Origin: Sphyrna mokarran
Lineage: Eukaryota
Length of the DNA: 64,000 nucleotides
NCBI GenBank assembly: GCA_024679065.1
Contig: JAGIQG010000040.1
Location: forward strand, 10,106,001 to 10,170,000
Direction: 5' to 3'
Shown: positions 22,620 through 51,945 of the stretch, piece after piece
Position numbering within the stretch: position 1 is the first letter of the stretch
Layout of the letters: the number at the start of each line of letters is the position of its first letter
The notes under the pieces: model-generated
Told to the model about the DNA's origin: nothing
Seen by the model: the letters and a program-made list of their open reading frames with translations, nothing else
Databases searched by the model: none
Translations under genes and position numbers: made by a program

Positions 22620-23518
22620 TCAGGCTTTATTGAGCTGAAAAATTACAGTAAAGGGATATTTCAATAGATTTTTTAGCTGCTGCCTAAAGTGAGTCTGTGT
22701 CACAGCATAAATAGCAGTATTTGTACAGCAACTTGTGAGTTGCAGCATGAAGCCCAACTCCATAACAAAAAAATCTAATGTCAAATGATAGCCCATGTCA
22801 TACATCCGATTCCATACTGAATAAACCATGAATGTTGACCATAAGAGGATGAAGTTGGCTGAGATAACAAACAGCAAAATGATGGATTTCCTTCGATTCT
22901 CAATCTCTGGGTCTCTGAAATTCTCTCCACTGCTGTGAGCCCGGAGTCTCCTGCGGGCTCTGCTGCTCACTAAAATGTGTCTGACGGTGAGAGCATTGAG
23001 CAGCAGAATCAGGACGAATGGGACACATGGGTTTAGAATGTAGTGGAGGAACTCGATTGCTCCCCAGGCCAGAGAATCCAAAACATCGATTGTGAAATCA
23101 CAAAACCAGGGGAGGTTCCACAGCCGATATGTATTTAATAACATAAAATACCAGACGATGTTCTTTAAACAGCTGAGCACCGTCACTGTTCCCAGAACCA
23201 CAGCCGCCGATTTCCCAGTGCAATATTTACTTTTCAGCTTGGGGCAGCAAATGGCCACAAATCGATCGAAGGTGAAAGTGATGGTGAACCAGACAGAACA
23301 GTCAGTGGCTGCGTAAAGCAGGACGGCGTGGATGTTACACATGGGGAGTGAACGCATGAAATAAAAGTGTTCGTGATAAACAATGGGAATCTGTCTCAAT
23401 ATCAGGTCGAGGATAACAACCAGCAGATCCCCCACTGACATGGCCACCAGGTAACGAGTGACACATTTGGACAGACCACAGTTTCTGTTTATCAGTGTCA
23501 CAATTGTGATTATGTTCA
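22620..23518 (-). CDS. GPCR-A exon 2: class A 7TM receptor, GPR139/GPR142-like (about 380 aa with exon 1)
   Basis: Acceptor cctgacag|TG; open frame with YLVAMSVGDLL (TM2), C..TDCSVWFT..FTFDRFVAIC (TM3), PCVPF (TM5), RRKSIILL (TM6), SCCTNTAIY (TM7), FRQQL (helix 8). Confidence 0.92.
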
Positions 23519-23654
23519 CTGTCAGGAAGGGAAATACAGAATAAAATTAGATATGATTCAGGGGAACAAATTACAATTTAGACTGACCTTGGGTTGAAAT
23601 AAAGAAAACACACAAAACAATTTGATTTTTTTAAAAAATCTAGTACCTCTTTTG

Positions 23655-23795
23655 GAGTGTGAGGAGAGGGGAGCAAACCTGTACAGACACAAAGAGAATA
23701 TACAAACGCAACACAGACAGTGACCCAAGACAGGAACTGAACCCAGGTCCCTGATGCTGTGAGTCAGCAGTGCTAACCATTATGCCACCACATTG
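23655..23795 (-). mobile_element. tRNA-derived SINE head (HE1-like) in GPCR-A intron
   Basis: GGTGGCATAATGGTTAGCACTGCTGACTCACAGCATCAGGGACCTGGGTTCAGTTCC. Confidence 0.75.
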
Positions 23796-24174
23796 TTCCT
23801 TGATAGTGACACAAAGGTATACATTAGGGAGAGAGCTTTCCAGGGAGTCCTCAACATTGTCCCTCACTCAGCTACAGGTAAATAGCCTCTCTACCCGTGG
23901 AGGATTTGGAGGGTAAAAAGTATGAGGCAGTAAATCCTAACAGGAGATCCGGAGTGGAGTCCTGTAGGTGGTAATCTGTTCTCTCTCAGACAGCTCACTG
24001 ACATCTCCCGCAACAGAGCTGGTACCAAACAAAGGGTTGGTTTGACCCTTTCCTTTGGACAGAACTAACAGTTGGCAGAGAGAGATCATGGTGCCTTGAA
24101 ATACAGAATCTCTATTATCTTTACATCTCCATGAATCCTCTCTTGGCAGGAAGGTTGCCAATGTGTGCACCAGG

Positions 24175-24450
24175 TAAAAACTCAAAACAAAGGTCAGCAC
24201 CAAAGGAAAAGCCAAGCAGGCTGCCTAATGACTATCATCCTGTGACTCCGACATTCGATATTATGAAATGCATCAAAAGTTTAGTCATGGCATGAATCAG
24301 TTCCAGCTTCCCAGATTGCCTAAATCCACTACAGTTCATCGACATCCACAACACGTCCAAAAACACCATCTCCCTGACACTACAGTCAACCCTGTAACAC
24401 CAACTCTTGTTTTTCGATTACAGCTCAGCCATTAACACCATTATTCCTAT
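24175..24450 (+). mobile_element. Rex/Babar-like LINE RT fragment
   Basis: Decayed NDYHPVTPT.DIMKC..LV and DYSSAINTII motifs. Confidence 0.55.
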
Positions 24451-24454
24451 ACAT

Positions 24455-24492
<38 letters not shown>

Positions 24493-24546
24493 GTGTGGGC
24501 GTGTGTGTGGGCGTGTGTGGGCGTGTTTTAGGGCATGATGTGTGTG
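24455..24546. repeat. (GT)n microsatellite
   Basis: Direct observation. Confidence 0.9.
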
Positions 24547-48325: not shown

Positions 48326-48513
48326 CTGTAAGGAACGAAGGAAATAAACAATGAAAATATGCATCAGCTTCCTGGCAAAATGACCAATTTGAATGAGGAG
48401 TTATTGACACTTTCTACTGCACCCTGTATTGCATGAGGATAAATACAGAATATAATGGAAACGTCTGTGATACAATGGGAGGAATCACAGATTCCTTCAT
48501 ATCATAGATTTAG

Positions 48514-49010
48514 GTGGCATGGAGGCACAGTGGTTAGTGCTGCTACTTTAAGCACCAGAGGCCCAGTTTCATTTCCAGCCTTAGGTCTCTGTCTGTATGG
48601 TAGAAGCCCTGTTTGTGAACAGAACTCCCACTCACCTGACGAAAGAACAGTGCTCCAAAAGCAAGTGGTGTTTGCCACCAAATAAACCTGTTGGACTTTA
48701 ACCTTGTGTTGTGAGACTTCTTAGTGTGCGGAATTTACACATTCTCCCCATATTTGTGTGTGTTTCCACCGGTTTCCTCCCACATTCCAAAGATGTACAG
48801 TTTAAGTGGATTATCCAAAGATGCACAGATCGGGGGATTAGCAGAGTAAATATCTCGGGGTACGAGGGACAAACTTCTTTTGAATTTCCCCTTAATGTCA
48901 GAGGAACAGCGTGAGGTTACAATGATAGGGCATGGGCAGCATTACTGACGGTGCAGATTTGATGGGCTGAATGGACTCCTACTGAACTGCAGAGACCTTA
49001 TAATTTTTAT
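48514..49010 (+). mobile_element. tRNA-derived SINE (HE1-like) interrupted by a Penelope 3'-end fragment (about 48601-48730)
   Basis: ggcacagtggttagtgctgct head; insert ctcacCTGACGAaagaacagtgctccAAAAgc...aaataaacctgttggactt. Confidence 0.75.
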
Positions 49011-49467
49011 GATTACACTATGAAATAAACAGAGGAGGCAGGAATGACACATGGAGTCAGAGGTGACGCAGAGAACTTGAAGTGAAGCGGGATCCTGGTG
49101 ACAGCAGTGGGAGGCAGAGGTGATTGAGAACTCAGGAGTGCTAGGGAGTTGGGGTGATTGGGATGGGCCAAAGATGATGGGCCTGTTAGCGGCAGAGAGA
49201 AGTGTGGATAATTTCCATCTTTTCACAAAGATTTACTCACTGCAACAAGATATCTTTGTGAGAAAGAGTGCTTAAATCCTCCAGGGTTGGAATTAGACTA
49301 TTAAAAATGCAGAACAGAAGATGTCATAGTTTTTGCTCCTTAAGATGGATATTGAAATGTTTGTAGACCGAAAATGATTATCCCTTCGGTTCTTGAAGAC
49401 AAATAGATGTTGGATTTTTCTTTTGGCTTTTATTCTGAAAGATTGGTGAGCTGGTGCTCAGAGCTAG

Positions 49468-49852
49468 TCACGCACACACACAAACACACAGAATTATGTC
49501 AAATCACACACATACACACTCACATGCAGAAACACACACAGATAAACACACACACATGCACAGACACACAAAAACACACGCAGACAGAAATATATTATCA
49601 CACCCATATACACTCATATACAGAAACATACACACAAAGATAAACACACACACACAAACAAACAAGCACACGCACACACACACATACACATAAACACACA
49701 TGCACGCACACACACTCATACATTGACATATGTAGAGACAGGCATACATGCACAGAAATATATAATAGAAACAGAAACTCAAACCAAAATCACACAAATT
49801 CACACACAAACATATGCATAAACACACAGATAAACACACACACGAACACAGA
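49468..49852. repeat. CA-rich simple repeat
   Basis: Direct observation. Confidence 0.88.
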
Positions 49853-50534
49853 GAAGGAAATTCGTTGCCATTCAGGTCAGTGGAATTTTCCCATCCTGAG
49901 GCTGTGAATGAAGATTTGGCTTTTTGTGAAATTATCTGGCCTCGGGAGTGTGGAGTAAATAGCTGGTTACATCCTTCCTATAGACACGACACATACACAC
50001 TGACAGACTGACAACATTTAAAAGATACTAGGATGATCACTTGAAATACCATAACCTTCAGAGACATGGGATAAAATAATATTAAATAGGACCATTTGTG
50101 AACCTTGAAAAAAGCTGTTAAGTTTGTTCCTATATTAAAGTTAAATCCTACTCGTTGGGCATATTTAAAGAGCTGGAGACGATATTTGATGTAGTCTGAC
50201 AATTTGACTTTTATTTTCTTGATACTGGGGATCAAAGATTAAAAAAATGATGCCAATTGGAAAAATGTGGACAATATCCTAACATATGCAAGGAATATTC
50301 TTTGGTCATGGATCAGTGAATAGTCTCCTTCTGTTCAGAATTGGCATCCAATTGTTATGGAACGTGCCCCAATGGAATTCCTAACTTATACATCCTGATC
50401 CAAATCTGACACACTCTGGCAAGTATGGAACCCCAACCTCAAATACACTGGCTCCATAAGGTCTGACCTCTGTTACAAGCTGTCCATAGGCTAGGTAGCA
50501 CTGCCTCTCTACAGCATGGTGTGTACATGGGACA

Positions 50535-50880
50535 TGGGCGTCACTGGCCAGCCAACATTTATTGCCCCTCGTTAGTTGCCCTTGAGAACGTGGTGGTGAG
50601 CTTCCATCTTTAATCCCTGCAGTCTATGTGTTGTAAGTTGACCCACAATGCCATTGAGGAAGAATTCAGGATTCGGATCCAGAAACTGCGAAGGAATAAC
50701 CAATATATTTCCAAGTCAGGATTATGAGTGGCTTGGAGGAGAACTTGCAAGTGACTGTGTTCCCATGTTTCTGCTGCTCTTATCCTTCAAGATGGAAGCG
50801 ATTGGGATTTTGGAAGGTACTGTCTAAGAATCGTTGTTGAATTGCTGCAGTGCGTCTTGTAGCTAGTACACACTGCTGAT
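50535..50880. mobile_element. Unclassified interspersed repeat (LINE-like 3' part)
   Basis: Shares sequence with 34075-34230, 53560-53740 and, inverted, about 37010-37080. Confidence 0.55.
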
Positions 50881-51770
50881 GGTTATCCTCTTTTATCCCC
50901 TGTTGTTACTTCATCTCTCTTTTTTGTATATGTGGAATTTCTGTGCATACAGAACACTGTGATTGAATTCTCATGGATTCGTCCATATTTATATATGGGT
51001 AAATTATCAATCTGCATTCCACCAGCTATGACTGTGTGCTAAATTAACAGAAAGCAAATATATTTAAGATAAAAAGAAAAATTAAAGGGAGCTTCCTCGT
51101 GTGGCTGAACATACGTCCTGCTGGTAATGACTAATGGACAGGCATAAACCAAGTTACAAAGACATGTGGCATGTGTCAGAGATGTTCAAATGTCCCCTCC
51201 AACATAGGTATCACACAGAAGGCAGCGGGAAGTGAATGAGGGCGCCTCCCATTTCAATCTATTGTTTCTGTGTTTCTATAAGCTCGCAATGATGAACATG
51301 TAGAGATGAATCACAAACAGGAGGCGAAAAATAAATACATTTCAAACGAGTAATTCGGGAAATCATGAATGGGAAGAATTTGCAGGAATCTGGGAAAAGG
51401 ACAGGGGAATGGGATTAGTAGCAAAAGTGAAACCTTGGAGGATTCAATCGCAAGATTCATAAAATTAACAAGGCTACGATGTCTTATTACCCGGCTGAGC
51501 TGAGGCAGAGTTGGGGGTGACAGTGGATTGGATCTGGATGTACGGAATATGATGTTGAAAATCTAGTTTGGGTCGAGAAGAAATTGGAAGTTGTGAACAG
51601 CCCCAGACAGAAGCCGGAGAGGGACATAAGGGCCACTATATTGATAATGGAATTAGTGACTAGCTGAAGAGGATGAATTCATTTTATTTTTTCAAAATGA
51701 AGACACGCAGAAGAAAAATACAGTTCAATATGTTTTATGGAATTTTTAAAAAATGGATAGAGAAACTCAC

Positions 51771-51945
51771 CAGGGACACCAACAATAGCCAGAATGGGAT
51801 AATACGCCTCTTGAATCCGTACCAGTATATCCTTGATCTGGAAATTCAAAGGTTTCTCAATGTCAATTGACTCGACAATGTTCAAGAAGAAACCTTCATC
51901 GATTGTTGGAAGAATCCAATCTATTGTTCTCTGATCTTGATCCAT
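51771..51945 (-). CDS. GPCR-B exon 1
   Basis: MDQDQRTIDWILPTIDEGFFLNIVESIDIEKPLNFQIKDILVRIQEAYYPILAIVGVP G|GTGAGT; phase 1, in frame with exon 2. Confidence 0.88.

Follow-up and report, generated by a model that had tools for sequence, protein, structure and literature searches.

A several-hundred-copy, GPR139-related receptor family of sharks, skates and rays as a candidate chemosensory repertoire

We analysed a 64,000-nucleotide stretch of the genome of the shark Sphyrna mokarran (GCA_024679065.1, contig JAGIQG010000040.1, positions 10,106,001 to 10,170,000 of the forward strand; hereafter the window), which lies on a 12.3-Mb contig (C994) and holds two paralogous receptor genes, A and B, both on the minus strand. 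These genes belong to a family of class A G protein-coupled receptors (GPCRs) that comprises at least several hundred genes and stands in databases under the automatic name GPR139. The family is real, large, and apparently undescribed, a case of GPCR repertoire expansion that started from a new root. It occurs in sharks, skates, and rays and may well be a chemosensory repertoire for outside molecules, a reading that we favour because of the size of the family and the history of its clade.

Two receptor genes and a several-hundred-copy family

The first-pass annotation had described two intact two-exon genes with a phase-1 intron in transmembrane helix 1 (TM1) and 899-bp second exons, and we found the splice sites and frames as claimed. 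Gene A consists of exon 2 (22620..23518, minus strand; 899 bp from the end of TM1 to the stop, an open frame with an AG acceptor and a Pfam 7tm_1 match at E 2e-18), an intron within TM1 (23519..25513, minus; 1995 bp, GT..AG, phase 1), and exon 1 (25514..25757, minus). The ATG at 25694 gives a protein of 359 aa, and an in-frame ATG further upstream at 25757 gives one of 380 aa. A 42-bp tandem repeat (25643..25775, minus; 3.2 copies) encodes a 14-residue N-terminal repeat, which is present in about 1 to 6 copies across paralogues (L135-L154) and is the source of several in-frame ATGs. Gene B is built in the same way, with exon 2 at 47427..48325 (minus; 899 bp, 7tm_1 E 3.9e-14), an intron at 48326..51770 (minus; 3445 bp, GT..AG, phase 1), and exon 1 at 51771..51945 (minus), and encodes 357 aa. 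The two proteins share 236 identical residues (66%). The window holds two copies only; a candidate third copy near 11623 was rejected as a chance ARRRLR match. Elsewhere, identical or near-identical copies of gene B (G000:C994:12094718) and gene A (C1547:4410) reflect either recent duplication or assembly duplicates.

Genes A and B match Pfam 7tm_1 alone, at 67 and 53 bits (cut-off 30.5). This match above cut-off, together with seven helices plus helix 8 (H8), D2.50, D/ERY, and a disulfide between TM3 and extracellular loop 2 (ECL2), places the receptors in class A (rhodopsin-like). The motifs quoted in the first-pass annotation, including LLWST without P6.50 and NTxxY, are present. A predicted structure of a catshark paralogue (P0007, distinct from genes A and B; predicted local distance difference test score 78) has an N-terminal helix, seven transmembrane helices, an ECL2 hairpin, and H8.

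A 32-base degenerate motif had 388 exact matches in the 2.77-Gb shark genome (control, 0) and recovered 14 of 25 loci found with an unrelated query. This recovery suggests a total of ~700 copies (roughly 500-1100), pseudogenes and some assembly duplicates included. Thus, the lineage expansion proposed earlier stands, with at least 388 motif-bearing copies. Most copies are intact: exon 2 was open in 33 of 40 motif-picked loci, and at least 132 genome matches were listed for gene A, all 74-100% identical, with 110 of 132 stop-free by manual count (at least 132 were also listed for gene B). When aligned, 81 distinct open frames were 41-100% identical to gene A. Within the stretches examined, 18 of 39 loci in one set and 16 of 20 in another also had an exon 1 followed by a phase-1 GT donor. 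Many of the clusters lie near contig ends.

A homologue search returned 2338 proteins. The best 120 were shark proteins, labelled "probable GPR139" where named, and the most similar among them (82%) came from Mustelus asterias. Family members are also present in skates and rays, and deep subfamilies are common to sharks, skates, and rays; chimaeras, lampreys, and amphioxus were absent from the named matches (the best 120 of the 2338 proteins and 20 of 150 representatives). For comparison, 75 class C receptor candidates in the same genome yielded 53 matches; a single cluster that we read as V2R-like accounts for 31.

Kinship with GPR139, GPR142, and sister lineages

A GPR139 motif picks out two genomic loci and no others (C749:56.37 Mb and C783:12.53 Mb), whose products are one typical GPR139 and one typical GPR142, 18-27% identical to family members. 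Each of these true loci adjoins a class C receptor match, much as human GPR139 and GPR142 adjoin GPRC5B and GPRC5C. Approximately unbiased (AU) tests on 25 rows rejected a grouping of the family with GPR139 (p 1.6e-38) and with GPR139 and GPR142 together (p 0.0016). Given single-copy loci elsewhere in the genome, the low identity, and the AU rejections, the family members are not plain GPR139/142 orthologues.

In a tree of 38 of the 69 collected proteins (LG+G4; 31 near-redundant rows left out), whose root depends on two long-branched proteins, the family groups with a lineage Y (support 99/97) and then with two further lineages, X and Z (100/98), with GPR139/142 outside; the family alone is supported at only 82/45. 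Lineage X (L108, G000:C805:46800425-46801393) is single-copy in this shark, lies between family clusters on C805, is 84% identical to a catshark protein, and has orthologues from teleosts to turtles. Lineage Z (L109, G000:C1104:25011285-25012214) is a single-copy GPR139-related orphan receptor gene. Lineage Y (P0249, P0412-P0431; 25 matches) falls into a single cluster for each amphibian species plus a single sturgeon cluster, with no teleost or amniote member among the matches listed. This conserved receptor, to all appearances single-copy in both groups, is the shark family's closest sister, and its Xenopus gene (XP_031757816) could open a way to the ancestral ligand and tissue.

The intron position of gene A, and of the family at large, is identical in all four single loci (L106-L109), and the AG acceptor falls at the same codon in 59 of 60 family loci as well as in L106, L107, L108, and L109. 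The phase-1 TM1 intron and best-match kinship place the family in the wider GPR139/142/GPR210-related clade. The original label "GPR139/142-like" is apt only as a statement of distant kinship, and it overlooks the closer sister lineages X, Y, and Z. GPR139 and GPR142 respond to L-Trp and L-Phe; an aromatic amino acid ligand cannot be assumed for the family. Fold searching was also tried as a means of placement: it returned generic class A peptide receptors only, with GPR139 at rank 30, and so does not place the family.

Conserved core and variable outer face

All 81 aligned family open frames keep D2.50, D3.49, R3.50, N7.49, and Y7.53; C3.25 is present in 80 and C45.50 in 79, and P6.50 is missing in 79. 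Between genes A and B, the first-pass annotation had contrasted a nearly constant cytoplasmic side with radically different extracellular parts, and each half of that contrast needs narrowing. Identity does reach 94% in the inner halves of TM3 and TM6, but it is just 64-67% in intracellular loops (ICL) 1-3. Outside, identity drops to 43% in ECL1, 46% in ECL2, 42% at the top of TM6, and 33% in ECL3, whereas TM2, TM3, and TM7 remain 82-87% identical in their outer halves. Variation thus lies in the loops and vestibule more than in the deep pocket. The middle of the N-terminus had been called unalignable; in fact, the A and B N-termini align with one 2-residue gap, with low identity in the middle. 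Loop divergence is in excess of that in the core, with a dN of 2.3 in ECL2/3 vs 0.35 in the inner helices (about six-fold). Three of the four outcomes named beforehand as fatal to the idea of a diversified repertoire, namely few copies, plain orthologues, and no excess loop divergence, thus all fail for this family. The variable sites fall in ECL1, after C45.50, at 6.58-6.62, and at 7.32, so the ligands are probably peptide-sized.

Selection was analysed with our own codon-model code on exon 2 only, using 32 A-clade and 14 B-clade sequences. In the A clade, M8 was favoured over M8a by a twofold log-likelihood difference (2dL) of 156, with omega 2.95 on 11% of sites, and 18 of 20 sites were on the outer face; in the B clade, 2dL was 19. 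When segments were run on their own trees, 2dL was significant for ECL1 (30), ECL2 (80), and ECL3 (19) and was -0.2 for the inner TM5-ICL3-TM6 segment. Recombination as a source of the signal was unsupported (pairwise homoplasy index, p 0.92). The core is under purifying selection (omega ~0.3). The site-model check proposed in the first-pass annotation thus gives a strong signal with constant dS but a weak one once dS varies: a free-rate mixture gains a 2dL of only 24.8, and nine sites survive both the constant-dS and free-dS treatments. The candidate positions are W133, D140, T142, D144, L146, G152, N236, D240, and F249 (numbered along gene A exon 2). Altogether, some loop sites have likely evolved under positive selection, though this is not settled.

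Upstream blocks, genomic neighbourhood, and possible roles

Both genes are preceded by a conserved block, a putative promoter. For gene A (25878..25960, minus), the block includes a forkhead-like site, a homeodomain TAATTG at 25942, an exact NF-kB consensus at 25900-25891, and a TATA-like box at 25885. The gene B block (~52035..52120, limits approximate, minus) is 72% identical to it over 128 bp. The names forkhead, homeodomain, NF-kB, O/E, and TATA stand here for consensus motifs, which we take as predicted sites. The block precedes 25 of 35 family genes tested, though none of the nine most divergent, and a stricter composite promoter pattern is found in 11 of 35. A tight version of the pattern has 111 genome matches, and of the 100 listed almost all lie within family clusters. 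An odorant-receptor-type promoter (homeodomain plus O/E) was considered and is only half borne out: a TAATTR homeodomain-type site is present in 17 of 19 blocks, the EBF palindrome in none. The NF-kB-like site sits directly before the TATA-like box. Because the loci are related, motif counts in the 19 blocks are not independent, and we regard the upstream motifs as a lead that may cut both ways, sensory or immune.

Near the start of the window, an immunoglobulin (Ig) heavy-chain C1 exon and its secretory tail (1769-2155, plus strand; C1 1769-2002) are separated by a frameshift that puts the tail in another frame; presumably this is a broken IgM secretory CH4. It belongs to a set of 25 close matches on C994. 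Outside the window, a tandem array of ~28 near-identical C1-set exons occupies G000:C1548:81.0-81.9 Mb. The window also contains 15 dispersed tRNA genes (8405-62357; Gln, Glu, Pro, Cys, Arg, Leu, Asn, Val, and one unassigned), several of them in repeated segments, as well as LINE-type fragments. Between genes A and B are a 52-bp satellite (31051-31801, 14.5 copies) and a 33-bp GC-rich minisatellite (41195-41450, 7.8 copies). Fragments at 18075-21609 that resemble a Penelope-type retroelement include an inverted 442-bp repeat (18075-18516 / 18815-19256).

No RNA run was listed as containing gene A, and none was on record as RNA of this species. Contigs from four presumed-RNA runs of other species cover exon 2, mostly at 80-95% likeness, but cover parts of the intron too, with no splice joint listed. 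Supplements to PMC8455134, PMC11372145, PMC10529500, and PMC12421772 were searched by term, and the gene name had no match in 12 of 24 whale shark files, four files of the bamboo shark immune atlas (one in part), one small nurse shark spleen file, and 12 of 44 sturgeon atlas files. A "probable GPR139" gene is listed among the chemosensory genes that are high in the osphradium of a snail (PMC10638732). We found no description of the expansion in the full-text literature, most subscription papers being outside the search.

In the chemosensory reading, every receptor would have an outside ligand of its own, recognised by the variable loops and vestibule, and the conserved inner core (DRF, RRKS, NTxxY) would, judging from its conservation, feed a common and probably shared G-protein signal; expression would be expected in sensory cells. 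The family is a large birth-and-death family with a variable outer face, as in chemoreceptor repertoires. Among vertebrate GPCR families, none but the chemosensory ones are known to run to hundreds of copies. Canonical shark chemoreceptor repertoires are small (PMC6368271, PMC10116579), with 5-8 receptors in each of the catshark OR, ORA, and TAAR families (PMC6368271). A broader proposal, which we advance only tentatively, is that the family represents a fifth chemosensory family of sharks and rays, at least ten times the V2R set and of GPR139-related origin, that it would be the main basis of odour discrimination, and that the supposed shortage of GPCRs in cartilaginous fishes is a product of annotation. 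Published work has portrayed these fishes as comparatively poor in GPCRs (PMC8455134), a picture contradicted by several hundred mostly intact receptors under one automatic name. With the family in hand, shark odour discrimination, or the sensing of microbes without MRGPR-type receptors, becomes directly testable.

Several results weigh against a chemosensory role. The receptors on C994 are interleaved with IgM-type exons: 25 of 35 IgM-type constant exons (at least 83% identity) are on this contig, spanning 3.5-10.9 Mb among the receptors. The NF-kB-like site is exact in 7 of 19 upstream blocks (shuffle mean 0.1) and has at most one mismatch in 17 of 19; the canonical EBF/O-E palindrome is missing from all 19 even at one mismatch, and a loose O/E motif, present in 4 of 19, is not above shuffles (mean 1.8, max 4). 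The family is unlinked to the V2R-like cluster, save for one copy 3.4 Mb distant. Null simulations with among-site rate variation give 2dL values of 25-52 (three runs; without it, -6 to 7, three runs), and region-specific dS gives an omega of 1.15 in ECL2 and 1.53 in ECL3, neither significantly above 1. Lastly, no GPCR is among the top 50 genes given for a catshark brain and olfactory library (PMC11979771), although any one receptor would be expected at low abundance there.

The Ig neighbours and the NF-kB-like site ahead of a TATA-like box would suit immune or barrier sentinels, that is, inducible leukocyte or epithelial receptors for microbial or damage-derived peptides, comparable to mammalian FPR and MRGPR. 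C1-set exons adjoin family copies on C738 and C1548 as well, the fast sites are surface-exposed, and MAS1 and its relatives are reported missing in cartilaginous fishes (PMC8455134), all of which fits such a role. We consider it a real but less likely alternative. The large clusters on C960, C971, C1005, and C894 have no C1-set exon among the best 150 of 490 candidates, the kB-like site is inexact in gene B, and many clusters lie near contig ends, regions that gather fast-evolving families of any kind. Immune GPCR families are not known to exceed tens of genes, and the bamboo shark immune single-cell supplements have no "receptor 139" or GPR139 row (four files, the main one in part). A reproductive role, in which receptors on gametes or in the oviduct would detect seminal or pheromonal peptides, would draw on the kinship of the clade to the insect sex peptide receptor, GPR139 relatives having been linked to SPR/MIP, proctolin, and FMRFamide receptors (PMC12208981). 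It would also agree with fast surface evolution, which is typical of reproductive proteins, but a few endogenous peptides would not call for hundreds of copies, and we judge this role improbable. Equally hard to credit is passive amplification in unstable tRNA- and Ig-rich segments, with mostly redundant copies and loops relaxed rather than selected. The 15 tRNA genes, LINE-type fragments, and frameshifted Ig exon of the window, the identical copies on small contigs, and a loop omega near 1 with free dS are as this would predict; the purifying selection on the core, the intact majority of copies, the deep subfamilies common to sharks, skates, and rays, and the conserved upstream block are not.

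Among solved structures, those of GPR139/142 (PDB 7VUG, 9M42) are the best match to the family by sequence (profile E 6.7e-14). Both sets have a phase-1 intron just ahead of N1.50 and no proline at 7.50; however, the family has C3.25 and C45.50, which GPR139/142 lack, and has lost the P6.50 that they keep. GPR139-related orphan subtypes, GPR210A, GPR210B, and a third unnamed set, have been described from fishes and coelacanth (PMC6504862, Rinne et al. 2019), and "Orphan 139-like" is a table row in PMC5207463. These two papers report no shark expansion, and "shark" has 0 occurrences in PMC6504862. Lineages X, Y, and Z are three lineages of this general kind. GPR210A/B and "Orphan 139-like", the nearest named receptors, are single- or low-copy subtypes of bony fishes, whereas the shark family has hundreds of copies and is sister to Y.

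Further afield, the nearest non-vertebrate Atlas clusters are of FMRFamide/Srw type (PF10324 on 50-74% of members), which recalls the nematode Srw and molluscan FMRFamide-receptor-like expansions. None of 83 family members matches Srw at E 0.1, however, and the family expanded independently within vertebrates. The mammalian MRGPR and FPR families are likewise class A receptors that have multiplied, evolve fast, carry altered TM6/TM7 motifs, and respond to outside peptides; they are much smaller, and no sequence kinship to the shark family emerged in the searches made. The vertebrate chemoreceptor repertoires differ in that the shark family has a coding intron, is without a canonical O/E site, and has no match to the Pfam models of OR, TAAR, V1R, or V2R, 7tm_1 alone being above cut-off in 83 of 83 members (a weak Srx match also appeared in the Pfam scans). 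Like OR, TAAR, V1R/ORA, and V2R/OlfC, the family is large and clustered, evolves by birth and death, varies on its outer face, and carries a homeodomain-bearing upstream block. Its recruitment from a neural receptor clade resembles what is reported of the origin of the TAARs.

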